From assembly GCA_965116445.1 (NCBI GenBank), contig OZ220688.1, forward strand, positions 1,675,789-1,739,788: a stretch of 64,000 nt of DNA, read 5' to 3'. Each line of letters opens with the position of its first letter. The first letter of the stretch is position 1. Shown one piece after another: positions 5,522-45,615 of the stretch. The notes under the pieces were generated by a model. That model made no database searches. It was not told the DNA's origin and saw only the letters and a list, made by a program, of their open reading frames with translations. The stretch is from Thermoanaerobaculia bacterium. Lineage in GTDB: Bacteria; Acidobacteriota; Thermoanaerobaculia; Multivoradales; Multivoraceae. Position numbers and translations under genes: made by a program.

Positions 5522-5988
5522 GATTCGCTACCCGACGACTCGTCGGGTTCCCGCTCCGAAGCCGCGACGCCGGCACGCGCGGCCTCGTCCAGGACGCCCT
5601 GCCAAAACGCCACATGACTGCCAACGCGGCGCTTCACGGTGCCCACGGGCGACTCGAGACGGCGCGCGCGAACGCGGACGATCCAGAGCAGAATCAGCGC
5701 CAACGCCAGCAGGCCCACTGCAACCACCAGCGCGGCTGCCCAGACCGGGAGCACCAGCGCCAGGCCGGCTCCGGCAGCGAAGAGGAGCGCGCCGAGGGCC
5801 CAGAAGACGATGCCGAACACCAGGGCGGCAAGCAGAACGAGGCCCAGAAAGCGGCGCCAGTTCCGGGCCAGGTCGAAACGCAGTTGATCCACTTCCGCTT
5901 CGAGCAGCGCCGCGGCGGAACGCGCCAGAGCGCCTCCGAGCCCGCTCAAGGCGCTCAACGACTCGACGATCTTCGTGGTCTTCACAAC
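5518..5988 (-). CDS. Putative holin-X / YqjE-like (Phage_holin_3_6-like) inner membrane protein; start approximate
   Basis: Two long hydrophobic helices (LGLVLLAALVFGIVFWALGALLFAAGAGLALVLPVWAAALVVAVGLLALALILLWIV) in a ~140-aa protein. Confidence 0.4.
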   Translation of the reverse strand, partial: VVKTTKIVESLSALSGLGGALARSAAALLEAEVDQLRFDLARNWRRFLGLVLLAALVFGIVFWALGALLFAAGAGLALVLPVWAAALVVAVGLLALALILLWIVRVRARRLESPVGTVKRRVGSHVAFWQGVLDEAARAGVAASEREPDESSGSES

Positions 5989-6070
5989 GGCTTCAGCCTC
6001 CAGGCAGACGCTAGCAGCCCAAATGTCGGCCTCGAAGCAGCCTACCCGCAACTCCCCGGTCAGACGTTCG

Positions 6071-7840
6071 TCAGGCGCCGACCCGCAGGTTCCGGGTGAT
6101 GAAGGACGTCTCGCCGGCCACCTCGTCCCGCACCGCGATCGTCAGGCGCTGATCGCCTTCCTTCATGATCAGGGGCAGCGTGTAGGTGTAGAAGCTCTCC
6201 CGCGCCCGCTCCAGGTCCTCGGCCGGGATGGTGAGCTCGAACGGCTCGACCTGGGGAGGCGAGATGTCCCCATTCGATGCCAGAGCCTGCACCCAGACAC
6301 GCGCCCGCAGCAAGTGCTCGCCCGCCGTGCCCACAGGCACCAGGGTCATCTCGCCGATCGGCACCCGCACGTCGAGGTGGACGGTGTAGAGCCCGCGCTC
6401 CTCACGGCGGATCTCGTCCGACTTGACCAGGGTGATGTCCAGGTCGTTCTTCTCGTAGCCGAGCTTGAGCGCCGCCAGGGTCCCCTCGGTCATCTCCGTA
6501 TCGATCGACTTGTCGCGGTAACTCAGGCGATGCCTCACGTTCCTGTCCCGCAAGCCAAGACGCCTCTTCGCCTCGTTCGTCAACTCGACGCGGAGCTTGT
6601 ACCTCCGGCCGGTACCCGCGTGACCGGGCTGGAAGCCGAGCGAGTAGAAGCTCGTGAAGTCGAGTGCGATGCGGTTCAGGCCGTCGCGGAAGTTGTTCGT
6701 GTTGACGATGTACTGGCCGCCGGTTTCTTCGGCCATGTACATGACGGACGAGTGCACGTTGTCCCTGGCGACGGAGTCGATGTTCGACGAGAACGCCATG
6801 CCCTGCATCGAGGCGTCCCGCGAGTTGATGCCCATCGGCCCGGCGGCGACGATCGTGTAGAAGGAGACTTCGTTCGCGTTCGCCGTGTCGACCAGGTCGC
6901 TAAAGCGCCGGCTCGAGTCGTACTGAAGCGAGTCGAGGAAGAAGTTCTGGTTGTAGCTCAGGGAGTCGACCGACCGGCCGCGCTCATCGAGCGCCTGCCA
7001 CATGTCCGCGCCCGCTCGCATCGGCAGACCGTCCGAGACGTACATGAAGGCCTTGCGGCCCGGCAGACCGGCCAGCGAGATCACGGTGTCCTTCAGACCG
7101 TCGATCGTGAACTGCATGTCGTTGAAGATCGACTGGGAGTAGATCCGGACCCGGCCCTGGACGTATTCGTAGTGGCGGTCCTCCTCGCTGATGTCACGGA
7201 TGATGTCGGCCCGGTCGGAGTCCCACTGCGTCCTGCCGCCAGTGTGCTTCTCGAGTTCGTAGAGAGCGTTCGCGATCATCTGCGGATCGCTGGTGAAGTC
7301 CCGCTCGACCTTGACCGAGCGGTTGTAGCTCAACAGCATGACCCGGTCGTCGCGAGTGACGTCCTTGCGCAGGAACTCGCGCACGTAGCGGAACACCCGA
7401 TTGCGGTTCTGGGGCCGGATGTTCATGTGATCGATGTAGATCACGAGGTTGAGGCGTTCGTCCTCCGGCACGACGACCCGTCGACGCTCCAGGCCCGGCC
7501 GGTCCACGAAACGGACTTCGGGTTCCTCCGGCACCAGGCCGGGTACGTCGCTCACCTTGACCCGATCCTGAACCTCGTAGAAGTTCGTGATCGTGACCGG
7601 GTCCTTCTCCTCTCTGAGAATGAAGTCCTTCCTGGTCAGGCCCTTCACCGGATTGCCGTCCTTGTCCCGGACGAAGACCTGGACGTTGACGACCTTGACG
7701 TGGACTGACTCAAGGAAGGTGGCGCGAGGCGGTTCGGAGGAGCCCTCCCGGACCTGACCGGCGACCGCCCCTGTCAGCAGCGATCCGAAGATCAGACAAC
7801 CGGCGCGCAGCACAAGCACTTGACGGAGTGGTCCAGCCAT
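6071..7840 (-). CDS. Secreted VWA domain protein with a TIGR03436-like 'VWFA-related Acidobacterial' N-terminal domain
   Basis: Start at ATG 7840 (MAGPLRQVLVLRAGCLIFGSLLTGAVAG, a signal peptide). FLESVHVKVVNVQVFVRDKDGNPVKGLTRKDFILREEKDPVTITNFYEV matches the TIGR03436 signature. A VWA-like core follows. Confidence 0.7.
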   Translation of the reverse strand: MAGPLRQVLVLRAGCLIFGSLLTGAVAGQVREGSSEPPRATFLESVHVKVVNVQVFVRDKDGNPVKGLTRKDFILREEKDPVTITNFYEVQDRVKVSDVPGLVPEEPEVRFVDRPGLERRRVVVPEDERLNLVIYIDHMNIRPQNRNRVFRYVREFLRKDVTRDDRVMLLSYNRSVKVERDFTSDPQMIANALYELEKHTGGRTQWDSDRADIIRDISEEDRHYEYVQGRVRIYSQSIFNDMQFTIDGLKDTVISLAGLPGRKAFMYVSDGLPMRAGADMWQALDERGRSVDSLSYNQNFFLDSLQYDSSRRFSDLVDTANANEVSFYTIVAAGPMGINSRDASMQGMAFSSNIDSVARDNVHSSVMYMAEETGGQYIVNTNNFRDGLNRIALDFTSFYSLGFQPGHAGTGRRYKLRVELTNEAKRRLGLRDRNVRHRLSYRDKSIDTEMTEGTLAALKLGYEKNDLDITLVKSDEIRREERGLYTVHLDVRVPIGEMTLVPVGTAGEHLLRARVWVQALASNGDISPPQVEPFELTIPAEDLERARESFYTYTLPLIMKEGDQRLTIAVRDEVAGETSFITRNLRVGA

Positions 7841-7935
7841 GAATTGTCGATTATAGGTGACGGTGCCGCTTCCGCCTCCAGCGGGGTTGCCTCGAACCGG
7901 GAACAAGGCGGGCGGCCCGACCATTCCGTGCGGCC

Positions 7936-8775
7936 TCACCTGTGCCCCCGACGGCCCGCCATCGGGTCGAGGGCGCCGTGGCGACCGTTCCGGCCCAGGG
8001 GATACGACCCGCGAAGAGCCCTCTCGACGAAGGCGACGGCCCGCCGCACAGCCCGCTCGAGCGGCAGGTGCCAGCCGAGACCCGCCGCGATCGCCGCCGA
8101 CAGGGTGCAGCCCGTGCCGCGCCGCCACGGGGTCCGGATTCTGGGGTGGACGAAGGCCTCGAAGCGATTGCCGTCGAACAGAAGATCGGTCAGTTCGCCG
8201 CTAGCGCCACAACCAGCCGACCCCGCCGCGGCCGAGTAGCCGTGGCCCCCGGTGATCAGGACGCCAGGCCCCAGCCGCTCGATGCGCCGCGCGGCAGTCC
8301 GGGCATCGTCCGGACCTCCAATCGCCATGCCGCTCAACCTCTCCGCCTCGAACAGATTCGGTGTCACCAGCAGCAACCTGGGCAGCAGCCGCTCCACGAC
8401 GAGGGGCAGGGCCTCGGCTTCCAGGAGTGCCGCGCCCGAGGTCGACCGGAACACGGGATCGAAGACCGCCGGCGTCGGCGGCAACGCCTCCAGCCAATCC
8501 GCGACCGCCTCGACCGTCGCGGCATCGGTAAGCATGCCGATCTTGATCGCGTCGAGGCCGATCTCGGCGGCCGCCTCCAACTGGCGGCGCAGCAGTTCGG
8601 TGCTTACCGGTTCGACTGCCTTGACTTCGCCGGCGGTCTGGGCGGTCACCGCGGTCAGGGCGCACAGGCCGTGAACCCCGTAGGCCGCAAAGGTCCGCAG
8701 ATCGGCCGGTACTCCCGAGCAGCCCCCGGAGTCGGAGCCGGCGATCGTCAGGACGCGCGGCGGCGGCGTAGCCAT
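7936..8775 (-). CDS. thiD: Hydroxymethylpyrimidine/phosphomethylpyrimidine kinase
   Basis: VLTIAGSDSGGCSGVPADLRTFAAYGVHG and LLVTPNLFEAERL motifs of the ThiD / PfkB-like kinase family. Confidence 0.8.
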   Translation of the reverse strand: MATPPPRVLTIAGSDSGGCSGVPADLRTFAAYGVHGLCALTAVTAQTAGEVKAVEPVSTELLRRQLEAAAEIGLDAIKIGMLTDAATVEAVADWLEALPPTPAVFDPVFRSTSGAALLEAEALPLVVERLLPRLLLVTPNLFEAERLSGMAIGGPDDARTAARRIERLGPGVLITGGHGYSAAAGSAGCGASGELTDLLFDGNRFEAFVHPRIRTPWRRGTGCTLSAAIAAGLGWHLPLERAVRRAVAFVERALRGSYPLGRNGRHGALDPMAGRRGHR

Positions 8776-9548
8776 AGCAGAGCGACCAGAAGCAGAAGAG
8801 CGGCCGCGATCAACTGCGCCACGGTCAACGCTCCGATTAAGCGATCGTCCTTGGCGCGCACGAACTCCACCAGGAAGCGCTCAACCGACAGCAGTCCGAC
8901 AACCGGCAGCACGACGCCGCCGGGCGCTGCGCCCCGCGCCAGGAGCCTGCGGCCGAACCAGAAGATCAGCAGCGCCGCCGAAGTTTCGTAGATCTGGGTG
9001 GGATGCACCGCGACGAGCGCGTCCGCCGCCAGGTCGGCCGGGAGGTCGACGCCGAACTCGCGCTGCAAGGCGCCCGCCGTGGTCGGGATCGGCCCCTCGG
9101 GAAACGTCATGCCCCAGGGAAGGTCCGTGGGCGAGCCGTAGTCGTCGCCGACGAGCAGGCACCCGATGCGGCCGATGCCGTAGCCGAGAGCCAGAGCGGG
9201 CGCCGTGGCGTCGGCCGTTCGCCATGCCGGCATCCGGCGACGGTGCATGACGAACAGAACCGCCGCGGCGCCGACCAGGAAGCCGCCGTACCAGACCAGA
9301 CCGGCGCGGCTGTACAGCAGACGCCAGTCGCCGTAGAGCAACGCGTAGTACGCCTTGCCGCCGGCGATACCGCCGAGGGCCGCCGCCAGCAGAATGGCCG
9401 CCGCATCGTCCGCGGCCCGCGCGGCGCTCGTGCCCACCCGACGGAGGCCCCAGCGCAACTGCAGGTTGCCGGCGAACAGGGCGACGACCAGCATCACGCC
9501 GAAGGGCGAAACCGAGAGCGGACCGATGCGGAAGAGTTCCGAGATCAT
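8748..9548 (-). CDS. lgt: Prolipoprotein diacylglyceryl transferase
   Basis: Polytopic membrane protein with Lgt signature motifs GYGIGRIGCLLVGDDYG and HPTQIYE. Confidence 0.85.
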   Translation of the reverse strand: MISELFRIGPLSVSPFGVMLVVALFAGNLQLRWGLRRVGTSAARAADDAAAILLAAALGGIAGGKAYYALLYGDWRLLYSRAGLVWYGGFLVGAAAVLFVMHRRRMPAWRTADATAPALALGYGIGRIGCLLVGDDYGSPTDLPWGMTFPEGPIPTTAGALQREFGVDLPADLAADALVAVHPTQIYETSAALLIFWFGRRLLARGAAPGGVVLPVVGLLSVERFLVEFVRAKDDRLIGALTVAQLIAAALLLLVALLWLRRRRAS

Positions 9549-9906
9549 GAACCCGCATCCTACGCCGCCCCGGTCCAGGAGCCGGCGCTAGCATGATCGG
9601 GATGCTGAGCGAGCTGGCCCAGAAGCGCTTCGACGCCTTCCGCAGCCACATGGAGGCGCCGATCCACGGGGGCGCTGGCTCGTCCTGACCCACGACAATC
9701 CGGATCCCGACGCGCTCACCGCGGCAACGACTTCGAGACGCTACGCGAGGCCCTGGCGAATCTTCGCGGAGTCGACACGTTGATCATGAGCCGGCTCGGC
9801 ACCGTGCCCCAACCCGACATCGTGCCCGAGATCGCCGATCTGCTGCTGCGAATGGAGGGGCGCTCTTGAGCCGGGTGCAGCCCAGGAGCGGCCCCTCCGG
9901 CCGTCC

Positions 9907-11487
9907 TCACTCCCACTCGATCGTGCCGGGCGGCTTGCTCGTCAGGTCATAGACCACGCGGTTGACGCCGGTGACCTCGTTCACGATCCGCCCCGCCACG
10001 GCGCCCAGGAACTCGTGCGGCAACTGGCTCCAGTCGGCGGTCATGAAGTCCTCCGTCTCGACCGCCCGCAGGGCGACGACGTTCTCGTAGCTACGGCCGT
10101 CCCCCATCACGCCCACGCTGTGGACCGGCAGGAGGACGGCGAGCGCCTGACTCACACGGTCATAGAACCCCGCGGCGCGCAACTCCTCGATGAAGATCGC
10201 GTCGGCTTCCTGCAGCACGGCCACCCGATCGGCCGTCACGTCGCCCAGGATCCGCACGCCGAGGCCGGGCCCCGGGAAAGGATGCCGGCCCAGGAACTCG
10301 GCGCCGAGACCGAGTTCCCGGCCGAGCTGGCGCACTTCGTCCTTGAACAGGTAGCGCAGCGGCTCGATCAGTTCGAAGCCCAGCCGCTCCGGCAGGCCGC
10401 CGACATTGTGGTGGCTCTTGATCATCGCGGACGGGCCGAAGGCGGAGACCGACTCGATCACGTCCGGATAGAGGGTGCCCTGGACCAGAAAGCGAAACGC
10501 GCCGTTCCCTTCGCCGGCACGCTCCAGCCTCGCCGCCTCGCGCTGAAACACCTCGATGAAGACGCGGCCGATCGTCCGTCGCTTCTCTTCGGGGTCGGAC
10601 ACCCCGGCGAGCGCGCCGAGGAACTCCTCGGCGGCGTCGACGACGACGAGCTTCAGGTCGAGCCCCTGGCGCAGGCTCCGCTCCACCTCGTCGCGTTCGT
10701 TCTTGCGCAGCAGCCCGTTGTCCACGAACACGGCGGTCAGGCGCTCCCCCACGGCACGCTGCACCAGGCTGGCCGCGACCGCTGAATCGACCCCGCCGGA
10801 GAGAGCGCAGAGAACTCGGTCGGAGCGACCGGCCTGGGCCTTGATCGCAGCCGTCGCCTCGTCGGCGTAGGAGGCCATGCGCCACTCTCCCGCGGCGCCG
10901 CAGGCGTCGTAGAGGAAGTTGCGAAGCATCGTCGAGCCGCTGTCCGTATGCGTGACTTCGGGATGAAACTGGATGCCGAAGAGGGACCGTTCGCCGTCCT
11001 CGGCAGCCACCACCGGCACCGTCGACGTCGACGCCGTCGCCTCGAACCCGGGCGGCAGTTGTTCCACCCGGTCGCCATGCGACATCCACACGTTCTGCTC
11101 CGGCTCCAGCCCGTTGAACAGATCGCCGTCCCTGGCCAGCAGCGTGATCCGGGCGCGACCGTACTCCCGCAGGCCCGATGCCGCGACCCGACCTCCGAGG
11201 ACCTGCGCCATCCACTGCATGCCGTAGCAGATCCCGAGCACCGGAATGCCCAGCCGGAGAACCTCCGGATCGGCCTGCGGCGCGTTCTGCTCGTAGACGC
11301 TGTCCGGGCCGCCCGAGAGGACGATGCCGATCGGCCGGCGGGCCCCGATCTCCTCGACGTCCAGGTCGAAGGGATGGATCTCGCAGTAGACCTGGAGTTC
11401 CCGGATCCGCCGGGCGATCAACTGCGTGTACTGGCCCCCGAAATCGAGCACCAGGACCGTCTCGTGCTCGCCTCTCCCCGCCGTCAC
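9907..11487 (-). CDS. guaA: GMP synthase (glutamine-hydrolysing)
   Basis: GATase1 domain (VLVLDFGGQYTQLIARRIRE, CYGMQ) plus an ATP-PPase domain (SGGVDSAV). GTG start at 11487 overlaps the gpsA stop (GTGA). Confidence 0.9.
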   Translation of the reverse strand: MTAGRGEHETVLVLDFGGQYTQLIARRIRELQVYCEIHPFDLDVEEIGARRPIGIVLSGGPDSVYEQNAPQADPEVLRLGIPVLGICYGMQWMAQVLGGRVAASGLREYGRARITLLARDGDLFNGLEPEQNVWMSHGDRVEQLPPGFEATASTSTVPVVAAEDGERSLFGIQFHPEVTHTDSGSTMLRNFLYDACGAAGEWRMASYADEATAAIKAQAGRSDRVLCALSGGVDSAVAASLVQRAVGERLTAVFVDNGLLRKNERDEVERSLRQGLDLKLVVVDAAEEFLGALAGVSDPEEKRRTIGRVFIEVFQREAARLERAGEGNGAFRFLVQGTLYPDVIESVSAFGPSAMIKSHHNVGGLPERLGFELIEPLRYLFKDEVRQLGRELGLGAEFLGRHPFPGPGLGVRILGDVTADRVAVLQEADAIFIEELRAAGFYDRVSQALAVLLPVHSVGVMGDGRSYENVVALRAVETEDFMTADWSQLPHEFLGAVAGRIVNEVTGVNRVVYDLTSKPPGTIEWE

Positions 11488-12545
11488 AGGGCGGACTCTA
11501 CCTTGAGCTCGCGCCGCATCAGATCCCGGATCGCGGCCGCCGGTTCCTTGCCCCTGTAAAGGATCTCGACCATCTGCTCCGTGATCGGCAACTCGACCTC
11601 CTTCCCGGTCGCCAGCTCGAGCAGGGCGAGTGAGTTGCGCACTCCTTCGGCGACACCGGCCCGGTCCGCCTCGATCTCCTCGAGGGAACGGCCCCGGGCC
11701 AGCTCGAGACCCGTGCTCCGGTTGCGCGAGAGGCCGCCGGTACACGTGAGCACGAGATCACCGAGACCACCGAGGCCGGCAAAGGTCGCCGGCCGGCCGC
11801 CGCAGGCCAGACCGAGACGCATCATCTCGTGCAGGCCGCGGGTGATCAGCGCCGCCCGCGTGTTCGATCCGTAGCGCAGACCGTCGAGGACCCCGGCAGC
11901 GATCGCGATCACGTTCTTGGCCGCGGCGGCGATCTCCACCCCGATCACGTCGGTCGAGGTGTAGAGCCGCAGCGCCCCGCCTGAGAGCAGTGACTGCAGT
12001 CGCTCGGCCGCCACCTCGGACTCCGACGCGACGACGCAGGCCGTCGGCAGCTCGGCGGCGAGTTCGGCGGCGAACGAGGGTCCGCTGATCGTGGCGAACA
12101 GGGCGTCCGTGCCGGCCGAGACCGCCTCTTCCCGGCAGATGTCGCTCATGCAACGGAAGCCACCGCGATGGTCGGACTCGATGCCCTTCGCACCGGAAAC
12201 GAAGGTCACCCGCTCCGGCAACGGAGCACCGTCGCCGAGACCGTTCCGCGCCTCGAGAAACGACCGCACGACGGCACGGAAGCCGTGCGACGGCACAACG
12301 ACGAGGACAGGATCGCACACCGCGGCCTGCCGCAGGTCCCAGGTCACGCGAAGCTCCGCCGGCAACTCGACGCCCGGCAGGTAACGCTCGTTCACCCGCT
12401 CCTCCGCCAGAACCGCGCCGTACTCCGGAGAACGGGCCCAGAGGGTGACCGGTGAACCCGCCCGAGCGGCATGGACCGCGAGCGCCGTGCCCCAGGCGCC
12501 CGCACCCAGCACGGCGACGCCGCTGGCTGCGGCCCCGTTCGTCAC
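11484..12545 (-). CDS. gpsA: NAD(P)H-dependent glycerol-3-phosphate dehydrogenase
   Basis: VAVLGAGAWGTALA Rossmann motif and the GpsA C-terminal domain. GTG start at 12545 overlaps the plsY stop (GTGA). The long upstream ORF extension is Arg/Gly-rich and non-coding. Confidence 0.85.
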   Translation of the reverse strand: MTNGAAASGVAVLGAGAWGTALAVHAARAGSPVTLWARSPEYGAVLAEERVNERYLPGVELPAELRVTWDLRQAAVCDPVLVVVPSHGFRAVVRSFLEARNGLGDGAPLPERVTFVSGAKGIESDHRGGFRCMSDICREEAVSAGTDALFATISGPSFAAELAAELPTACVVASESEVAAERLQSLLSGGALRLYTSTDVIGVEIAAAAKNVIAIAAGVLDGLRYGSNTRAALITRGLHEMMRLGLACGGRPATFAGLGGLGDLVLTCTGGLSRNRSTGLELARGRSLEEIEADRAGVAEGVRNSLALLELATGKEVELPITEQMVEILYRGKEPAAAIRDLMRRELKVESAL

Positions 12546-13225
12546 TCGGCAGCCTCGGACGCCGGCCGCTTCTGCCCCAGCCGAGACTCCGTGCCCGCAA
12601 GCAACCGGACCAGGTTCGCCCGGTGCTTGACGATCACCAGGACCGCGATCGCGGACACGGCAGCCAGCAGTGCCGGTCCGTAGTCCAGGCCGTCCGCATC
12701 CTTGAAGGCGCCGCTCCACCAACGGGCGCCGACCAGAACCGGCAGCGAAGCCGCCGCCGAAATCGAACCAAGCGAGACATAGCGTTTCCAGGCCACGAGC
12801 AGGATGAACACCGCCAGCACGCCGAGCCCGGCCCAGGGCACCAGCACCGCCAGCACACCCGCGGCCGTGGCCACGCCCTTGCCGCCACGAAAGACGAGGA
12901 ACAGGGGAAACACATGCCCCGCCACCGCCGCGACCGCGGCCGCCGCGAGCCACCAGCTCCCGACGTCGAGCGTTCCCGCCAGGACGACCGCCGCCGCGCC
13001 CTTCGCCACATCGAGCAGCAGCGCGAGCAGGGCCGCCCACTTGCCTGACGCGCGCAGCACGTTCGTCGCGCCGGCGCTTCGGCTGCCGATCGTCCGCACG
13101 TCGAACCCCCGGTGGATCCGCACGATCAGGTAGCTGAACGGGATGGACCCGAGGAGGTACGCCACCAAGACAGCGATGGGACCGGTCGAGGTCACGCGGC
13201 CCCCTCTCCGCGCGGCGCTGCCCAT
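12542..13225 (-). CDS. plsY: Glycerol-3-phosphate acyltransferase PlsY
   Basis: Membrane protein with PlsY motifs LLGSIPFSYL, GSRSAGATNVLR and FRGGKGVAT; followed by gpsA as usual. Confidence 0.8.
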   Translation of the reverse strand: MGSAARRGGRVTSTGPIAVLVAYLLGSIPFSYLIVRIHRGFDVRTIGSRSAGATNVLRASGKWAALLALLLDVAKGAAAVVLAGTLDVGSWWLAAAAVAAVAGHVFPLFLVFRGGKGVATAAGVLAVLVPWAGLGVLAVFILLVAWKRYVSLGSISAAASLPVLVGARWWSGAFKDADGLDYGPALLAAVSAIAVLVIVKHRANLVRLLAGTESRLGQKRPASEAAE

Positions 13226-14514
13226 GGCAACAGGTCCCTTCCAGCCTCACGCGGCCGCAGCATCCGCCGCAGCAGTTCGAGGGCGAACTGGGTCGAGAGT
13301 TGCCGCACCCGCGCCCGGTCGCCCGGGAATCGCGCCTCGAAGTGCGAACGAGCGGCCGCCGGGCCGGCGACCGCGATGTGAACGGTCCCCACGGGAAGCT
13401 TCTCCGTGCCGCCGCCGGGGCCCGCAACGCCCGTGATCCCGATGCCGTAGTCGCTGCCGCAGCGTTCCCGGGCGCCCGCGGCCATCGCCAGCGCCGTCCG
13501 TTTCGACACCGCGCCGTACTCCACCAGGGTTTCGCGCGGCACGCCGAGAAGGCGCATCTTCAGTTTGTTCGAGTAGGTCAGAAGGCCACCCACGAAGTAG
13601 GCGCTGCTGCCCGCGGTGGCCGTGAACCGCTGGCCGAGCAGGCCGCCCGTGCAGGACTCGGCGACCGCCACCGTCTCGCCGCGGTCCGCCAGCAGGTCGC
13701 CGACCGCGGCCTCGAACTCGATGCCGTCCTCGATCGCGCCGACGTAGAAGACCGCCTCGCCCAACGCCTTCCGGACCGCCGCTTCCATCTCCGCGAGACG
13801 CGGTGCCCTGCCCGCCACCGACCCTCCGGCCCGCAACCGCAGCCGGATCTCGCCCGGTCGGGCCAGCACGGACACGTCCTCATCGCCGAAACGCTCGTAG
13901 ACCCGCACGATCCGCTCCTCGACGACCGACTCCGGCAAACAGGCGACCCGCACCTCGACCTGATCGAAGCCCGCGCCGTCCTCGGACCGCGCCGCCAGCC
14001 AGGGGTCGAGCGCGTCGTCCACGAGAGCCTTCAGTTCCCGCGGCACGCCGGGGAACAGAAAGTACGTCGTGCCCCGAGGCGAGGGCGCGGCATCCTCGAT
14101 CCGCTGACCCGGCGCGACACCGGCCCGGTTCGGCAGCATCTCCGCTCCGTCGACCCGCTCCGCCTGCTTGCGGTTGACCCGCGGAATGCGCCGGCCGAGC
14201 TTGCGAAACCCGCGCTCGATCTGATCCCACAACGCCTCGTCCACCGCGACCGACCGGCCCAGCAGCCGAGCCAGCCCCTCCCGCGTCAGATCGTCCCGCG
14301 TCGGGCCCAGGCCGCCGGTCACCAGCAGCAGCTCCGCGCGCTCCCGAAGCGCATCCAGGGTCTCCGCGATCCGGACGACATCGTCGCCGACGACCGCCTT
14401 GGAGACCAGATCGACTCCCCGCCGTCTCAGCACCTCCGTCAGGACCAGGGAATTCGTATCGAGCCGGTCCGTACCGAGCAGCTCACCGCCCACCGCGAGA
14501 ATCGAAGCCTTCAC
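13192..14514 (-). CDS. cinA: CinA family nicotinamide mononucleotide deamidase / competence-damage protein
   Basis: N-terminal MoCF-biosynthesis-like domain (ILAVGGELLGTD) and C-terminal CinA domain (AVAESCTGGLLG ... GTVHIAVAG). Start approximate (GTG near 14514). Confidence 0.75.
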   Translation of the reverse strand: MKASILAVGGELLGTDRLDTNSLVLTEVLRRRGVDLVSKAVVGDDVVRIAETLDALRERAELLLVTGGLGPTRDDLTREGLARLLGRSVAVDEALWDQIERGFRKLGRRIPRVNRKQAERVDGAEMLPNRAGVAPGQRIEDAAPSPRGTTYFLFPGVPRELKALVDDALDPWLAARSEDGAGFDQVEVRVACLPESVVEERIVRVYERFGDEDVSVLARPGEIRLRLRAGGSVAGRAPRLAEMEAAVRKALGEAVFYVGAIEDGIEFEAAVGDLLADRGETVAVAESCTGGLLGQRFTATAGSSAYFVGGLLTYSNKLKMRLLGVPRETLVEYGAVSKRTALAMAAGARERCGSDYGIGITGVAGPGGGTEKLPVGTVHIAVAGPAAARSHFEARFPGDRARVRQLSTQFALELLRRMLRPREAGRDLLPWAAPRGEGAA

Positions 14515-14576
14515 CGGCCGCAGTGTAACGAGGCGGCGTTCGACGCGGCCATGCACCGGCCGCTGTAAGATTCGAG

Positions 14577-15350
14577 GTGGTCAGCAGCGGCCAGATCGAA
14601 GAGCCCTCCGACCGATCCACAGCAACCCGCCCCCCGGCATTCCCTGCCGCGACCGAGGACGACGAGATGGCAGCGAACACAGAAGCCCACACCCTCGATC
14701 CCGAGACGAGGCTCGACAGGATCGAGGCAAACCTGGAACACGCATCCCGACTGATGATGGAGTACCGAAAGGACCAGCGGGAGACCGATCGGCAACTGAA
14801 GGAGACCGATCGGCAACTGAAGGAGGATGCCCGGCGGGCGCAGGAGGACACCCGGCGGATGCAGGAGGACACCCGACGGTTGAAGAAGGAAGGGAAGAAG
14901 ACCGATAGACGACTCCGGAGAGCCGAGAACCTGTTCACCACGCAGTGGGGCAAGCTGATGGAGAGCCTGGTCAGGGGCGACCTCATCCGGCTGCTCAAAG
15001 AACGCCGAATCGAAGTCGAAGGCACCGCGAGGGAAACCGAGAAGGCCCGAAACGGGGAGCACTTCGAGATCGACATCATCGCGATCAACGGCAGTGAGCT
15101 CGTCGCCGTCGAGGTCAAGACCACGCTTCGCTCGGAGGGAGTCACTCACTTCCTCGGGAAACTCGAGCGCTTCCTGGAGTGGTGGCCCGAGTTCCAGGGC
15201 CGCAGGATCTACGGGGCAGTTGCGTATCTCCAGAGCAGCGACTCAGTGGTCAAGTATGCCCAGCGGAGGGGCCTCTTCGTCATTCGAGCCACCGGCAGCA
15301 GCGCCAGCATCGTGAACCCCGACGACTTCGAGCCGCGCATCTTCTCCTGA
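14577..15350 (+). CDS. Hypothetical coiled-coil protein with a C-terminal PD-(D/E)xK (restriction-endonuclease-like) fold; alternative start at ATG 14667
   Basis: N-terminal heptad-rich coiled coil with tandem peptide repeats (ETDRQLK x2, QEDTRRM/L x2). The C-terminus carries E...D...E-V-K spacing (GEHFEIDIIAINGSELVAVEVKT). Lower GC than its neighbours. Confidence 0.55.
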   Translation: MVSSGQIEEPSDRSTATRPPAFPAATEDDEMAANTEAHTLDPETRLDRIEANLEHASRLMMEYRKDQRETDRQLKETDRQLKEDARRAQEDTRRMQEDTRRLKKEGKKTDRRLRRAENLFTTQWGKLMESLVRGDLIRLLKERRIEVEGTARETEKARNGEHFEIDIIAINGSELVAVEVKTTLRSEGVTHFLGKLERFLEWWPEFQGRRIYGAVAYLQSSDSVVKYAQRRGLFVIRATGSSASIVNPDDFEPRIFS

Positions 15351-15425
15351 AGGCCTGCGGGATTCGGCCGCCGACCAGGACCGCCACGCGGGCCGACGCG
15401 GCCAAGTCGTCCTCTTGCTGTCCCT

Positions 15426-16514
15426 TCAGGCTGCCGGGCGCACCCTGGTGCCGGTCACCTCGGCCAGCTCGTCGGCGAATCGGAGAAGGTCGCGACGAAG
15501 GTCCGGCCAGCCTTGGCCCAGGTCGAGCGAACGAACCTCGATCGAGTGGCCGGGAAAGTCGTAGGCGTGGCGGAACGACTGACCGTCCGTGGCGTAGAGC
15601 AGCAGGCCGGCGGGTGAACGATCCGCGGGGTTGGCGCGAGAGTAGTTCGTGAGGTAGGCCCAAAGCTGGTAGAGGTGGCGGCTCTTCAGCGTCTTTCCGC
15701 CGCGGTCGAAGGGCTTCTTCTCGCACTTGGCCTCCACGATCACGGCGCGGTCGCCACGGGCCGGAACGAAGACGTCCGTCTCCATGACGGGAAGCTGCGG
15801 CGAGTCCGGCGCGGCGGTCGCGTCATGCCAGCGGATCTGCCGGTGGCCCCGATGAACCCCGAGCTCCGGCCGCTCCCGCCGAAGAAAGCCGCGGACGAAG
15901 GCCTCGAACAGGTGCCCCATCTCCCTGTCGTCGGCATCGAACGCGCGGAACCGGTAGCGGCCGGACCGGCCCTCCGGAACCAGCCGGCCGGCAATCAGTC
16001 GGCTGACGCTGAGGAGGAAACCGTAGTCCGAGTTGTTGCGGTGGAGCTGCACGCCGTGGAAGAACTCGCCTCGCAGCTCGATTTCATCGACTTCGGGGAG
16101 AAGACGCGCCAGGCGAAGCAGGTCGCGGCGCAACCCGTCGTCCAGGTCGTTCGCTGGCAGCGACGCCAACCGCAGCATCGTCGACTTGACCAGGCGGTTG
16201 GGCAGCACGTTCCGGGTCAGCTCCTCGTAGCGCACCGCCACGCGAGCGCGGGAACGAAGCGCTCGAGCCACCGTTCGCGTCAGATCGATCTTCCCTCGAG
16301 GCCGCCGTGCGTCCTCGGCCCGCTCCAGGTAGCCGCGATCGAGTCCGCGCCGCCACAGCCGCCGGAAGCTGTCGCGGAGCAGCCGGGCCATGAGGTTCTG
16401 CGGCAGATCGTCCGGGGCCGAAGCGTGTTCTCTTGCCGCCACCGAGTCCAGATGCTCGAACCGCTCCCATGCGTAGCAGAGCACGACGTAGAGAGTGTGA
16501 GACGGGATCTTCAT
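15426..16514 (-). CDS. mcrC: 5-methylcytosine-specific restriction enzyme subunit McrC
   Basis: 362 aa located immediately downstream of mcrB. McrC-family length, with a C-terminal PD-D/ExK-like VIVEAKCEKKPF motif. Confidence 0.75.
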   Translation of the reverse strand: MKIPSHTLYVVLCYAWERFEHLDSVAAREHASAPDDLPQNLMARLLRDSFRRLWRRGLDRGYLERAEDARRPRGKIDLTRTVARALRSRARVAVRYEELTRNVLPNRLVKSTMLRLASLPANDLDDGLRRDLLRLARLLPEVDEIELRGEFFHGVQLHRNNSDYGFLLSVSRLIAGRLVPEGRSGRYRFRAFDADDREMGHLFEAFVRGFLRRERPELGVHRGHRQIRWHDATAAPDSPQLPVMETDVFVPARGDRAVIVEAKCEKKPFDRGGKTLKSRHLYQLWAYLTNYSRANPADRSPAGLLLYATDGQSFRHAYDFPGHSIEVRSLDLGQGWPDLRRDLLRFADELAEVTGTRVRPAA

Positions 16515-16526
16515 CGCGGACGCGGA

Positions 16527-17864
16527 TCAATCGCCGGCCTGCAGGTTCGCCACTGCCTCCGAAGCTGTCTCCGGCCTGTCGAACCAGTACTCATCGAGCA
16601 GCGGCGCGATATCGAAGCTGACGATCTCCTGGAACCACTCGTCGTAGTCGGGCGACCCTCCGGAGGGCGGGTCGCAGAAATAGCTGTGGCCAATGCGGAA
16701 ACCGGCTCCAAGATCCGAGTCTCCGGCGATCGCCTCGTTTAAAGCACTGAGCCGCTCGCGAATGCGCCCGCGGACTGGCGCCGGGACCCCTTGGCCCTCC
16801 AGGTGACGCTGGAACTGAGGTTGCCTGAACGCCGGCTCCACCGTGAAGAACGCGAATCGCCGGCGCAGCGCGTAGTCGACCAGCGCCAACGAGCGGTCCG
16901 CCGTGTTCATCGTGCCGATCAGGTGGAGGTTCTCCGGCACATGGAACCGCTCGGCACCGTCTCGCGGGTAGGCGAGCCGCACCGCCCACTCCTCCGACCG
17001 CTTGTCCGCCTCGATCAGCATCAGCAACTCGCCGAAGATGCGGCTCAGGTTGCCTCGGTTGATCTCGTCGATCAACAGAACATGGGGCCGGTCGCCGTCC
17101 TCCCGCGCCCGCTCGCAGAAGTCGAGAAAAGGCCCATCGCGGAGCACGAAGCCGCCTTCTTCCGTGGGTCGGTAGCCGCGGACGAAATCCTCGTAGCCGT
17201 AGGACTGATGGAACTGCACCGCCTCGATGCGCTCCATCGACCGCTCTGCCGCCAGGACCCATGCCAGCCGCTGCGCGATGAACGTCTTCCCGGTGCCCGG
17301 GGGACCTTGGAGGACGAGGTTCTTCTTGCGCTTGAGCTGGGAGAGGAGCCGCTCGATGTCGGCGCGATCGAGAAAGACCTGACGTGCCGCATCCTCAAGG
17401 GTGAACAGACCCGACTCCAGATACAGCGGGCTCGGAACCGACGCCGCTGCGAGTTGAGGGGTTGACACCTCTCCGTCTGATTCGGCCCTCGGTTTCGCAG
17501 ATCGAACCAGTCTTCGCGTTGGTCGCGCTTCTACGTTGGCAGCGCTCCTGTAGGTACTGAGGAGTTCGGTGTCAATCTGTCCGGGATCTCGATCCAGAAG
17601 ATCCAAGCCTTCCTGGGTGATTCGATACACCTCCTTCCTTACCTTCCGTAGTAGGCCGGCACCTCCTAAATCGACTAGCGCCCAGGCCACGGTGTTGTGG
17701 AACACCGGCGTTGGTCCGCGAGCCGGCATCTCACTCAGGTCCTGAGTTGACAGGCCCATCGCCGAAGCGACGCTGCTTCGAATCTCCGAACTCGATACCT
17801 CAACGCCATCCCCCAGGGCCTGAAGGACTGGCAGCCTCACACTGGGGCGATCAGGTACCGTCAT
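16527..17864 (-). CDS. mcrB: McrB-type GTPase/AAA+ restriction subunit with an N-terminal Mrr_N-like winged-helix DNA-binding domain
   Basis: AAA+ motifs LQGPPGTGKTF and LLIDEINRGNLSRIFGELLMLIE (McrB signature). The N-terminal 90 aa (LPVLQAL...GLSTQDL...PVFHNTVAWALVDLGGAGLL) match the Mrr_N wHTH that is also present in the Mrr gene at 44743. Confidence 0.85.
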   Translation of the reverse strand: MTVPDRPSVRLPVLQALGDGVEVSSSEIRSSVASAMGLSTQDLSEMPARGPTPVFHNTVAWALVDLGGAGLLRKVRKEVYRITQEGLDLLDRDPGQIDTELLSTYRSAANVEARPTRRLVRSAKPRAESDGEVSTPQLAAASVPSPLYLESGLFTLEDAARQVFLDRADIERLLSQLKRKKNLVLQGPPGTGKTFIAQRLAWVLAAERSMERIEAVQFHQSYGYEDFVRGYRPTEEGGFVLRDGPFLDFCERAREDGDRPHVLLIDEINRGNLSRIFGELLMLIEADKRSEEWAVRLAYPRDGAERFHVPENLHLIGTMNTADRSLALVDYALRRRFAFFTVEPAFRQPQFQRHLEGQGVPAPVRGRIRERLSALNEAIAGDSDLGAGFRIGHSYFCDPPSGGSPDYDEWFQEIVSFDIAPLLDEYWFDRPETASEAVANLQAGD

Positions 17865-18037
17865 CTAGCGGCTCCTCACTCACGCCGCGTCGATGTCGGT
17901 TTGGGCACTGTCCTCGCCCTTGAACAACAGAAGCTCATCGCTCGTCCCGCCCTGGGCGAGGCGAAGCAATCGCCGAGGTTCAACCGGGCGTCTGCCCTTC
18001 CTGGAGCGACGCCTCACGAGGCTGCGCAACTCTACGA

Positions 18038-18235
18038 TCACCTCGGCAAACCGCAGTGGTCGTAGAGGAGGTCGCCATGCTCGATGGCCGAAGGTCCCGG
18101 CTGCAGAGACTCGGCACAGCGCCGGCCGATGGCGAGTAACTCCTCGACGCGGGCATCCAGGTCACGCTGGCGCTCTTCGCGTACGAGGCGGCAAGTCTCC
18201 TCGTTCTTGATGTTCAGGGTCATCGCTATCTCCAC
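18038..18235 (-). CDS. VapB-like (Rv0623/PSK_trans_fac-type) type II antitoxin, orphan
   Basis: MTLNIKNEETCRLVRE N-terminus and a C-terminal SAIEHGDLLYDHCGLP motif typical of this antitoxin family. The true start is probably the second ATG (18223). No PIN/VapC partner is nearby. Confidence 0.6.
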   Translation of the reverse strand: MEIAMTLNIKNEETCRLVREERQRDLDARVEELLAIGRRCAESLQPGPSAIEHGDLLYDHCGLPR

Positions 18236-18357
18236 GGTAGAACGCTGGGCTGAGCGTCTACCCTACGACCGACCGACTGACCGCGCAAACGTCCCGTTCT
18301 CACTCCAGGCTTCGAAGTACCTCCGCATCCCGTCCTGCTCGCCCACGTTCTTCGCCT

Positions 18358-19626
18358 TCAGCCCTCCGCCACGGCCGGCGGCCCCTCGATCTGCTCTCCG
18401 ATCACGAGCGCGGCCGCGACCTCGCGTTGCAGGGCTTCCGGGTCGCGCCGCACGTAGAGCCGTGCGAGTTCCTGGCCTCGTTCGACCTTCTGGCCCAGGC
18501 GAACGTCGTAGCGGATCGCCACCGCGTGGTCGATCTGGTTCGGGTCGCGGTCCGGGCGGCAGGCGTCGGCTAAGGCGTTGCCGATTCGCCGACAGTCGAC
18601 GGCCTCCAGGAAACCCGACTCGGAGGCGGTGACGACGGCTTCGACCGGCGCCAGGTCGAGGCCGTTCGTCCAGCCGGGCTCGGCGCCCTGTGCGTCGGCC
18701 CAACGGGTGAGGTTCTCCCGGGCGGCGCCGGAGGCGACCGCCGCGTCGAGGTCTCCCGGCGAGATGTCCCGCCCGACCAGGCGACCCGCCTTGCGGCAGA
18801 CGGCGATCACCACCTCGCGCAGGCGGGAGTCTCCGTCCCCGGCCAGGAAATCCAGCGCCTCGCGCACTTCCGCGGCGTGGCCGACCCAGCGGCCGAGAGG
18901 CTGGCTCATGTCGCTCAGGACGCAGTCCGCCGGCGTGCCGCAGGCGGCGCTGATCGAAACGAGGCCGGATGCGAGCTTGCGGGTCTCCTCGGGGTCGGGG
19001 AAGAAGCCGCCGTTGCCCGTCTTCACGTCGAACACGATTCCGGATGCGCCCAGGGCGAGTTTCTTGGACAGGATGCTGCCGACGACGAGCGGGATCGAGC
19101 TCACGGTCGACGTGCGATCCCGCAGGCCGTAGAGGCGCCTGTCGGCCGGCGCGATGCTCCCCGTGGCGATGCCGATTGCCATGCCGAAGCGGTCCAGCAG
19201 GTCGAGGGCGCCGGCCCGGTCCAGCTCCAGACGCAGGCCGGGGATGCTCTCCAGCTTGTCCGCGGTGCCGCCGCTGTGGCCGAGGGCGCGGCCCGTCAGC
19301 TTGGCCGCCGGCACGCCGCAGGACGCAAGCAGGGGCAAGGCGATCAGGCTGACCGTGTCGCCGACGCCGCCAGTCGAGTGCTTGTCCACCAGCGGGCCGA
19401 AGTCCTCCGCCAGGGTCCAACGGTCTCCGGACTCGAGCATCGCCAGGGTCAGTTCCCGCGTCTCGTCGGGATCGAGGCCCCGCATCGCGGCGGCCATCAG
19501 GAAAGCGGCAAGGTGCACGTCCGTCCAGCTCCCGTCGGCCGCTCCCGCGGCGACGGACCACACCTCGTCGCGGGTCAGTTTCCGCCCCTGACGCATCCGG
19601 TTCAGAATGCCGTAGGGCGTAGCCAT
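18358..19626 (-). CDS. deoA: Thymidine / pyrimidine-nucleoside phosphorylase
   Basis: DKHSTGGVGD and GRALGHSGGTADKLE motifs; full-length glycosyltransferase family 3 fold. Confidence 0.85.
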   Translation of the reverse strand: MATPYGILNRMRQGRKLTRDEVWSVAAGAADGSWTDVHLAAFLMAAAMRGLDPDETRELTLAMLESGDRWTLAEDFGPLVDKHSTGGVGDTVSLIALPLLASCGVPAAKLTGRALGHSGGTADKLESIPGLRLELDRAGALDLLDRFGMAIGIATGSIAPADRRLYGLRDRTSTVSSIPLVVGSILSKKLALGASGIVFDVKTGNGGFFPDPEETRKLASGLVSISAACGTPADCVLSDMSQPLGRWVGHAAEVREALDFLAGDGDSRLREVVIAVCRKAGRLVGRDISPGDLDAAVASGAARENLTRWADAQGAEPGWTNGLDLAPVEAVVTASESGFLEAVDCRRIGNALADACRPDRDPNQIDHAVAIRYDVRLGQKVERGQELARLYVRRDPEALQREVAAALVIGEQIEGPPAVAEG

Positions 19627-19703
19627 GGGGCGGGATACCGGCCGCGCCCTGTCAGCGTGCGCCGCGGAACATTGGGCCCGCAGTCTTCCTGCCGCGCACG
19701 CTG

Positions 19704-20903: not shown

Positions 20904-20920
20904 TAGCGCGCCTGGGAGGC

Positions 20921-20996
20921 TGGTGCGCCTGGAGGGACTCGAACCCCCTTGCTTCTTGACTAGGAATCCACCGCGCCATTCACCTGACCTGCGGGC
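20921..20996 (-). pseudogene. Degenerate tRNA-Arg(CCT)-like copy (tRNA pseudogene or att-site remnant)
   Basis: The 3' 28 nt (T-arm, acceptor 3' strand and CCA) are identical to the adjacent tRNA-Arg, and the anticodon loop TTCCTAG is retained. However, the 5' acceptor strand (GCCCGCA) cannot pair with CAGGCGC, and the D-arm is absent. Confidence 0.5.
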
Positions 20997-20998
20997 TG

Positions 20999-21075
20999 TG
21001 GTGCGCCTGGAGGGACTCGAACCCCCGACTTCTGGATTAGGAATCCAGCGCTCTATCCCGCTGAGCTACAGGCGC
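20999..21075 (-). tRNA. tRNA-Arg (anticodon CCT), CCA encoded
   Basis: Minus-strand sequence GCGCCTG-TA-GCTC-AGCGGGATA-GAGC-G-CTGGA-TTCCTAA-TCCAG-AAGTC-GGGGG-TTCGAGT-CCCTC-CAGGCGC-A-CCA folds into a canonical cloverleaf. Confidence 0.85.
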
Positions 21076-32326: not shown

Positions 32327-34827
<2,501 letters not shown>

Positions 34828-44742: not shown

Positions 44743-45615
44743 TCACAACGAGGCCCTGACATCGAAGCGGAGAGTGTCTCGTCGGGAGTCCGCTTGGTGG
44801 TCGAAGCCAAGGGAGCAACCACCTCGAGTGAAGCTGGCCGTCGTAACAAAGACACCCTTAGTGGTTCCGGCCGCATCGATTGCGCCTCCGAAGTTGCGCA
44901 GGTCAGACCCGCCCACCGACTTCCCTTCGGCAAACTTCTTGGCTTGGACATACACCGCGTCCAGCCCCAGAGCGTCTTCACGAATCTTGCCGTCGATGCC
45001 GCCGTCGCCCGAGCCCCCGGTAACCTCACCACGGTCCGGGTTTCCGCCTCCATAGCCCAAGGCGATCAGGAGGTCCACGACTACGCGCTCGAAGAAGGCC
45101 GGGTCCTCCTGACGGAGCCGATCGAGGATCTCCACCTCGAGCGCTCCGCTCAACTCAGCCACAGCCGCCTCGAGTCTCTCCTCGGGCGGCTCCTCCACTG
45201 GGGAACGAGTCCCTGCTGCGGCCTCATCGCCGCCGTCGTCTGTCGGGACCGTTGCCTTGGCTCCTCGCCGCGAACTCTGAGCCTTCCAGTCCTTGTACTG
45301 CTGGTCCGCGTTGAGAAAGACAACGTCAACCCGTGAGCCGGCAACCAGGATTCCTCGCCCCTTCTCCGTCAGGCCGTGGTAGCCGCGGCGACTGCCAGCT
45401 ACGAGTCCCGCTCCCTTGAGGTGAGACAGGCTCCAGCTCAGGCGATTGTGGAAGACGGGCTGCCGTCCATTGGCCATCATGACGCTTCGGTCCTTCGTGC
45501 TCAGGCCAGTCGCCGCGGCGACCCGCTCCCGGATCTTGGCCAAGGGAAGTTCCTCGCAGTCAACCAGCGACTCCAGTACCGGCTGCATCAAGTTCGAGTA
45601 ATCCGGAACGGTCAT
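44743..45615 (-). CDS. mrr: Mrr-like Type IV restriction endonuclease (Mrr_N wHTH + Mrr_cat PD-(D/E)xK), possibly C-terminally shortened
   Basis: N-terminus: QPVLESL...GLSTKD...PVFHNRLSWSLSHLKGAGL. Catalytic core: GGSGDGGIDGKIREDALGLDAVYVQAKKF...KGVFVTTASFT, very close to E. coli Mrr. The ORF ends about 20 aa earlier than typical Mrr proteins. Confidence 0.75.
   Translation of the reverse strand: MTVPDYSNLMQPVLESLVDCEELPLAKIRERVAAATGLSTKDRSVMMANGRQPVFHNRLSWSLSHLKGAGLVAGSRRGYHGLTEKGRGILVAGSRVDVVFLNADQQYKDWKAQSSRRGAKATVPTDDGGDEAAAGTRSPVEEPPEERLEAAVAELSGALEVEILDRLRQEDPAFFERVVVDLLIALGYGGGNPDRGEVTGGSGDGGIDGKIREDALGLDAVYVQAKKFAEGKSVGGSDLRNFGGAIDAAGTTKGVFVTTASFTRGGCSLGFDHQADSRRDTLRFDVRASL

Follow-up and report, generated by a model that had tools for sequence, protein, structure and literature searches.

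The deoA-cinA spacer of a Thermoanaerobaculia bacterium, a probable recombination hotspot holding McrBC, a decayed vapBC pair and a DUF8196 nuclease

Background

In a Thermoanaerobaculia bacterium (GenBank assembly GCA_965116445.1), the housekeeping genes cinA and deoA are separated by a variable islet of about 3.8 kb (14535..18357, without assigned strand), bounded by comparison with the deoA-cinA spacers of two relatives (L090 and L091) and by homology on the cinA side. It contains a coiled-coil nuclease gene, the restriction genes mcrC and mcrB, and a vapB-like antitoxin gene. The question raised by this locus is whether these genes constitute one defence system or several elements that share a site, and what the coiled-coil nuclease might do. 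The window is the whole stretch of DNA that was analysed, 64,000 nucleotides of contig OZ220688.1 (positions 1,675,789 to 1,739,788, forward strand), and positions are those of the window unless a comparison locus (L numbers) is named; P numbers denote proteins.

An initial annotation, made from the sequence without database searches, had described four co-localised defence genes at this site, and a listing of open reading frames (ORFs) and profile searches agree with it on the identity and placement of all four. We consider it likely that the deoA-cinA spacer is a recombination hotspot with three independent modules: a canonical McrBC system, a decayed vapBC pair, and a free-standing nuclease of the DUF8196 family. 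The parts are of known kinds, the DUF8196 family being the sole real unknown. Two points deserve to be followed up, namely the exchange of McrB reader cassettes at the level of strains, and the amplified DUF8196 family.

The McrBC system and exchange of its reader

The mcrC gene (15426..16514, reverse strand, 362 aa) and the mcrB gene (16527-17864, reverse strand) are co-directional and 12 bp apart. McrC matches the Pfam McrBC family (E = 1.2e-25, 90.5 bits, cut-off 23.9) and, over its full length, the NCBIfam McrC model (1.3e-73). The only Pfam domains in McrB are an Mrr_N winged helix (residues 10-91, 1.3e-19, 70.5 bits, cut-off 29.5) and AAA-type domains (AAA_5 at residues 182-337, 1.1e-25), and the NCBIfam McrB model (2.5e-94) covers residues 152-434 only. 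The equivalog cut-offs of NCBIfam are missed by both proteins (316.6 versus 637 for McrB, 248.2 versus 338 for McrC); PADLOC left McrC unmatched and matched McrB only with the generic REase_II and mREase_IV models and weaker P-loop models. All the expected motifs are present: Walker A (GPPGTGKT, residues 187-194), Walker B (LLIDEINR, 263-270) and the NxxD signature (MNTAD, 319-323, with N320 and D323) in McrB, and the PD-(D/E)xK motif (D247...E261-A-K263) in McrC. The system therefore looks functional and of the canonical NxxD type. The Mrr_N head of McrB would bind modified DNA, upon which the AAA+ ring would hydrolyse GTP and McrC would cut.

The system resembles McrBC of Escherichia coli K-12 (EcoKMcrBC) in its two-gene mcrB-mcrC operon, in its AAA+ GTPase with Walker A, Walker B and NxxD motifs, and in the PD-(D/E)xK motif of McrC, but differs in that both proteins fall under the equivalog cut-offs and in that its reader is an Mrr_N winged helix, whereas that of E. 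coli is DUF3578/ADAM. The replacement of DUF3578 by Mrr_N, which the initial annotation had noticed, is thus upheld by the Pfam match. It is a known type of reader and not a new architecture: Mrr_N is among the domains commonly fused to McrB GTPases in the census of Bell et al. (2024, PMC11090510), uncharacterised pairs of an NTD-wH-NTPase and a McrC-like nuclease have been described (PMC11037411), and other Mrr_N-McrB proteins were found among those compared here (P0127, P0230, P0233, P0235, P0237 and P0239). What distinguishes this locus from published McrB-reader fusions is that the exchange of one reader for another (Mrr_N versus DUF8426) can be observed by comparing strains at a single locus, on a near-identical motor.

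The exchange is evident from alignment with the corresponding locus of L087, a sister strain whose backbone is about 92% identical to that of the window. The two sequences align from the backbone through position 17377, which corresponds to McrB residue ~163 at the start of the GTPase, and again from 18036, the vapB stop codon; between these points the window has 660 bp, and L087 has 1,242 unrelated bp encoding a DUF8426 McrB head of ~385 aa. The swapped cassette (17377..18036, reverse strand) comprises the N-terminal reader of McrB, i.e. the Mrr_N winged helix and a linker (17378..17864, reverse strand), together with the 5' region of mcrB and a vapC remnant. The AAA+ GTPase part of mcrB (16527..17377, reverse strand, residues ~163-445) lies outside it and is 92-97.5% identical to that of L087 in windows of 200 nt. 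At the protein level, the window McrB, P0122, P0124 and P0152 have near-identical GTPase domains and three unrelated N-termini. The alignments indicate that the reader head with the 5' region of mcrB is an exchangeable cassette, and the positions of the breakpoints suggest that homology arms were provided by the vapB remnant on one side and by the GTPase, whose sequence is conserved, on the other. Exchange through these arms would yield strains with different readers and almost the same motor and nuclease.

Other parts of the islet also appear to have moved between the two lineages. The backbone of the window is roughly 87-96% identical to that of L087, but positions 14000-16400 (the end of cinA, the DUF8196 gene and most of mcrC) are 97-100% identical, and the synonymous divergence (dS) from L087 is 0.013 for the DUF8196 gene and 0.029 for mcrC, compared with 0.16-0.19 for cinA and deoA. 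This identity and the low dS relative to the backbone indicate that parts of the islet were exchanged recently by homologous recombination. The locus offers a clean natural case of type IV restriction changing its target, in which the head is exchanged and the motor and nuclease stay almost unchanged, and its Mrr_N and DUF8426 alleles are a ready-made pair for asking what each head recognises.

Several minor observations concern McrB and McrC homologues. A 92-bp patch in the GTPase part of mcrB (17131-17222) is 96.7% identical to a degraded mcrBC fusion ORF of L001 and L002, whose surrounding sequence is only ~73% identical to the window or unalignable; the patch looks like a small recombination tract. 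A canonical Mrr (44743-45615, reverse strand; Mrr_N 8.5e-21 and Mrr_cat 1.8e-21) is encoded elsewhere in the window and shares 33% identity, in its N-terminal region, with McrB residues 1-167, so the genome has two effectors that use one type of reader. Like the window McrB, Mrr of the E. coli type (Mrr_N plus Mrr_cat) has an N-terminal winged helix of this type, but its effector is a fused PD-QxK nuclease instead of a GTPase motor with a separate McrC. At 32944-33354 there is a weak match to the McrB AAA+ domain (27% identity, E = 3e-6), which is probably another AAA-family ATPase. In L005 (4678-7044, reverse strand), as in L006-L008 and L011, a McrC homologue (McrBC domain at residues 24-307) is fused to an N6_N4 methyltransferase (residues 471-773) and has a DUF8426-McrB as its partner, the site again being the one between cinA and deoA. 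An association of McrBC with methyltransferases has been called surprising and deferred to later work (PMC11090510).

The decayed vapBC pair

Upstream of mcrB there is a 65-aa ORF (18038..18235, reverse strand, with a likely start at ATG 18223) that matches the Rv0623-like antitoxin family of Pfam, PSK_trans_fac (31.5 bits, cut-off 28.3). The orthologous loci L001 and L002 have an intact VapB of 85 aa and a PIN-domain VapC of 128 aa. Compared with L001, the window vapB has an in-frame internal deletion of 24 aa, located between two RLAR motifs and common to L087, and comparison with the intact VapC of L001 identifies 17880..18041 (reverse strand) as a vapC pseudogene remnant, retaining the first 4 codons and, from the terminal ~45, stretches in two reading frames. 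The initial annotation had taken vapB for an orphan, stand-alone antitoxin; the vapC fragments and the vapB deletion instead reveal a decayed vapBC pair, to all appearances nonfunctional as a pair. It is like VapBC systems in that its vapB lies above the Pfam cut-off, and unlike them in that 24 internal residues are gone and only a remnant of vapC is present, so that an intact antitoxin with an adjacent PIN toxin is lacking.

The DUF8196 nuclease

The coiled-coil gene occupies the ORF at 14577-15350 on the forward strand, but probably begins at ATG 14667 (14667..15350), which gives a protein of 227 aa, the length of its homologues and of the genes called in relatives. The protein matches Pfam Hjc just above the cut-off (22.4 bits, cut-off 21.1). 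It belongs to the DUF8196 family (PF26618), as judged from precomputed PF26618 matches on its homologues, the match on the window gene being weak. Its model predicted by AlphaFold2 (pLDDT 84) consists of a single helix (residues 12-112) followed by a PD-(D/E)xK core, for which the best structural matches found by Foldseek are the nuclease domains of NucS/EndoMS, AF1548, Cdn1, Can2 and Card1 (E = 1e-4 to 1e-3 for 2vld, 1y88 and Can2). A sequence-profile search of the PDB with the family alignment returned coiled-coil noise only. The restriction-endonuclease-like E..D..EVK C-terminus reported in the initial annotation corresponds, in 227-aa numbering, to E134 (codon at 15066), D136 (15072), E149 (15111) and K151 (15117), the last two flanking a valine, and all four residues are invariant among 24 aligned sequences. 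Both the core fold and the E/D/E-x-K residues thus place the protein among the Hjc/NucS-like PD-(D/E)xK nucleases. Within the helix, TRF identified 21-nt tandem repeats (14780..14890, forward strand) that encode 7-aa repeats of the ETDRQLK type and form the variable part of the coiled coil; the number of heptads varies among homologues and among tandem copies. The heptad-repeat helix may oligomerise the protein and so bring two or more Hjc/NucS-like active sites onto DNA.

In architecture, DUF8196 comes closest, among described proteins, to DUF1626/PDDEXK_10 (COG5493) and DUF3782, which have an N-terminal coiled coil and a C-terminal restriction-endonuclease-like domain and are uncharacterised (Knizewski et al. 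2007, PMC1913061). DUF8196 shares this two-part architecture and the Hjc/NucS-like core. Of 24 DUF8196 relatives, four have weak matches to PDDEXK_10 (best E = 0.0021) and two to DUF3782 (best 1.9e-4). Membership in either family was rejected, the window protein matching neither model; it also differs in retaining the classical lysine of the EVK motif and in having a Pfam entry of its own.

The family is large. At E <= 1e-3 there are 2,524 homologues, many with a PF26618 match, and more than 575 confirmed DUF8196 stretches are found in species-representative genomes; with the nuclease domain alone, phmmer matches fall into 2,122 clusters at 50% identity for E <= 1e-3, 854 for 1e-10 and 102 for 1e-30. 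In nearly all of the best 150 phmmer matches listed, the nuclease domain is found at, or close to, the C-terminus, and none of these proteins is long enough for an additional large domain. DUF8196 matches come mostly from Thermoanaerobaculia / 'Candidatus Multivorans' and from metagenome-assembled genomes (MAGs) of other Acidobacteriota, and further matches are from MAGs of Gammaproteobacteria, Spirochaetia and Bacteriovoracaceae. Judging by the names of the isolates, many of the MAGs that carry DUF8196 presumably belong to sponge or coral symbionts. A search of the available literature library found nothing on DUF8196 or Candidatus Multivorans.

The family is also highly amplified. Counting only the loci that were kept, one gammaproteobacterial assembly has at least 11 copies and OX638294.1 at least eight. 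More than one copy is present in 17 of 86 loci (L001-L086), with up to eight in a row: L043 has a tandem array of eight DUF8196 genes (5581-13176 of that locus) and L028 an array of four (5542-10642). In most of the arrays examined, the nuclease parts are 93-100% identical at the nucleotide level and the copies differ chiefly in heptad number, which suggests that most arrays are recent amplifications; the array of L072 is more diverged (79-89%). In L028 the 120 nt upstream of the copies are also 93-98% identical among them. By eye, acidobacterial copies (e.g. L026, L028, L064 and L076) have a CCCTTGCC/CCCTTGTC-type motif ~90-110 nt upstream, and gammaproteobacterial copies (L072) have a TTGACA...TATTAT-type promoter and an AGGAGG site upstream. 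These motifs suggest that each copy may be its own transcription unit.

We see DUF8196 as a nuclease with an intact active site that would oligomerise and that probably takes part in conflict with foreign or selfish DNA, acting, as we propose, alone and not as a subunit of McrBC. Two findings count against a defensive role: paralogues encoded in its own or a sister genome sit amid transporter and metabolic genes, a neighbourhood of the housekeeping kind, and PADLOC recognises no DUF8196 system of its own, offering just matches to the nuclease domains of CARF proteins.

The same facts can be read in another way, which we regard as unlikely overall but as a serious alternative: the DUF8196 genes may be selfish or toxin-like, being either stand-alone nucleases that spread themselves or nucleases restrained by an antidote, RNA or protein, that has escaped recognition. 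The high copy number, the recent tandem amplification and the scatter among housekeeping genes would fit such elements, and distribution over several phyla, for the most part in MAGs with names hinting at a common habitat, points to horizontal spread. Nor was a conserved partner gene found: clusters of neighbouring proteins other than DUF8196 itself recur in at most eight loci, except one, in 16 loci, that looks like the DUF8196 gene itself read in an alternative frame. Other findings count against this reading. There are no terminal or att-like repeats around the window copy and no PHROGs match to the protein. Neither is there a conserved antisense or upstream RNA structure that might act as an antidote: no Rfam family was found at E <= 1 in 14000-18600, 11 of 12 leaders (the 5' regions of DUF8196 genes) fold no better than shuffled sequences (z from +0.7 to -1.2, L030 being the sole outlier), and an anti-Shine-Dalgarno complement of at least 5 nt that could sequester the ribosome-binding site occurs in 33 of 53 leaders, compared with 34.3 +/- 3.1 in shuffles. 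The ratio of nonsynonymous to synonymous substitution rates of the DUF8196 gene is mixed (0.15 versus L087, 0.60 versus L001) and rests on very few substitutions; the invariant catalytic residues speak for maintained activity, which does not discriminate between selfishness and defence.

A nuclease in conflict with foreign DNA thus remains our preferred interpretation of DUF8196. A more elaborate version of it, which we put forward as speculation and hold to be somewhat less probable still than the selfish or toxin-like alternative, is that the family is a new stand-alone immune or conflict nuclease in which the number of heptads sets how far apart paired active sites lie or how far they reach, the arrays are graded 'rulers' against foreign DNA, and the genes have spread horizontally among co-habiting symbionts of several phyla. 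In any case, DUF8196 is a large, catalytically intact and highly amplified family of nucleases without a known function.

The insertion site and its occupants

The islet is flanked by cinA (ORF at 13192-14556, reverse strand, with a likely GTG start at 14514 by comparison with relatives) and by deoA, encoding a pyrimidine-nucleoside phosphorylase (18358..19626, reverse strand). The comparison of cinA-deoA spacing in related genomes that the initial annotation had proposed proves informative. Empty sites are found in L090, where the spacer is 16 bp (deoA 81% identical to that of the window), and in L091, where it is 43 bp (deoA 75% identical), and homology to the L091 spacer picks up ~20 nt upstream of the GTG start of the window cinA. 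A distant member of the Thermoanaerobaculia, L092 (deoA 55% identical), has the same spacer filled with two other defence-like genes (10299-13818 of that locus), an SLFN_AlbA_2/HATPase_c_4 gene and an AAA_21/SMC_N ATPase. Since L090 and L091 are empty and L092 is differently filled, the spacer is taken to be a recurrent insertion site and the islet an insertion.

Every relative that keeps synteny and whose deoA is at least 84% identical has some version of the islet genes, so the insertion is not recent. The islet of L088 is the same as that of the window, and L087 has the same gene set with the different McrB head described above. In L009, mcrBC has been deleted except for ~100 bp of mcrC, and DUF8196 and vapB are retained; in L001 and L002, mcrBC has decayed into the fusion ORF and vapBC is intact. 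In L005, L010 and L011 there are a DUF8426-McrB, the McrC-N6_N4 methyltransferase fusion and two additional ORFs, and the DUF8196 gene is on the deoA side, beyond the mcrBC-vapB block. These rearranged, degraded or deleted forms in the closer relatives examined support the view that the islet is an old mosaic hotspot. Thus the insertion into a housekeeping run that the initial annotation had proposed holds, as the empty sites attest, but not as a single recent insertion of four genes.

Composition agrees in part with a foreign origin. The dip in GC content that had been noted is real, the islet being at 0.649 where the window as a whole is at 0.679 and cinA and deoA are at 0.71-0.72, and the N-terminal part of mcrB is, as had also been noted, the most deviant stretch, with a GC of 0.602 and a GC content at third codon positions (GC3) of 0.605, against a GC3 of 0.82-0.90 in backbone genes. 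GC3 is 0.689 in the GTPase part of mcrB and 0.788 in vapB, and backbone-like in the coiled-coil gene (0.825) and mcrC (0.837); the reduced overall GC of the coiled-coil gene is due mostly to its amino-acid content.

An alternative, which we consider quite improbable, is that the clade inherited the islet from its ancestor and that the empty sites of L090 and L091 are clean secondary deletions, with no insertion having occurred. The backbone-like GC3 of the DUF8196 gene and mcrC, and the presence of islet genes in every synteny-preserving relative with at least 84% deoA identity, would be accommodated by this history. It would however require two independent and more distant lineages to have been left with spacers of just 16 and 43 bp, the second of which aligns directly with the sequence immediately upstream of the window cinA, and it sits poorly with the other genes in the same spacer of the outgroup L092 and with the foreign composition of mcrB.

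Searches for flanking repeats or att sites around the islet gave short matches at chance level only, and the sole tRNA of the window (tRNA-Arg, 20999-21075), considered as a possible integration site, is 2.6 kb away, past deoA and two more genes. Scans for promoter and terminator consensus sequences found nothing in excess of shuffle expectation, and McrC and VapB, like DUF8196, have no PHROGs match that would point to phage origin.

Relationship of DUF8196 to McrBC

The DUF8196 gene and mcrC have a spacer of 75 bp between them and are convergent, as the initial annotation had observed when it considered the coiled-coil protein as a possible accessory of McrBC. Co-occurrence was assessed in 78 loci from other genomes, in which McrB and McrC were sought by profile searches within 10 kb on either side of the DUF8196 gene. 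McrBC was found in four: L009-L011, which are the orthologous cinA-deoA site, and L063, a different site at which McrB is 1.4 kb from the DUF8196 gene on the opposite strand. One McrBC in ~74 independent loci is roughly what chance would give for one to three McrBC systems per genome of 5 Mb, a rate that is itself an estimate. There is accordingly no conserved co-occurrence at unrelated loci. The DUF8196 gene has survived intact despite the deletion of mcrBC in L009 and its degradation in L001 and L002; the DUF8196 gene is always on the strand opposite to the mcrBC block, and the side of the block on which it lies differs by lineage. With co-occurrence beyond this site at roughly chance level, no conserved neighbour, persistence without mcrBC and a variable side, DUF8196 is best regarded as independent of McrBC, and the role of accessory that had been entertained for it is not borne out.

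Some considerations weigh on the other side. As the top-scoring members of a set of more than 575, the 78 loci do not form a random sample, and the McrB and McrC profiles were seeded from the window system, so that a very divergent McrBC could escape them. Every closer relative that retains the islet has DUF8196 and McrBC together in the spacer, so that, on co-occurrence statistics alone, a functional link specific to this lineage is conceivable. Nevertheless, that DUF8196 is a third, accessory component of McrBC, for example a second effector recruited via its coiled coil, is very improbable, for its occurrence with McrBC in one spacer (window, L087, L005/L010/L011 and L001/L002), its convergence with mcrC, its inclusion with mcrC in a single recombination tract 97-100% identical to L087 and the nearby McrBC of L063 are outweighed by the rarity of such proximity at non-orthologous loci, by the arrays and scattered paralogues of a multi-copy family without McrBC, by its survival of the loss or decay of mcrBC, and by a position relative to the mcrBC block that depends on lineage, always on the opposite strand. 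The independence of DUF8196 from McrBC removes a tempting wrong annotation, and the family itself is worth testing.

A coiled-coil nuclease protein beside a McrBC pair also recalls CoCoNuT systems, which are defined by a GTPase motif of the NxD type and by fusion of the McrB homologue to a coiled coil (PMC11090510). Assignment of the locus to this NxD branch of McrBC systems was rejected, the window McrB having N-T-A-D (NxxD) and no coiled coil. Unlike CoCoNuT, the window locus is without a CnuH helicase or HEPN effector, and its coiled-coil nuclease is encoded by a separate gene on the opposite strand that belongs to an unrelated multi-copy family.

Other features of the locus

Two further differences between the window and its relatives are found on the far side of deoA. 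L087 has an IS110-family transposase (DEDD_Tnp_IS110/Transposase_20; 16031-17302 of that locus, forward strand) between deoA and a TPR gene, which is missing from the window at about 19650-19700. The tRNA-Arg(CCT) region of the window (20915-20996) is single and matches two or three adjacent positions in L002, L005, L010 and L087, which may have tandem copies of tRNA-Arg where the window has one.

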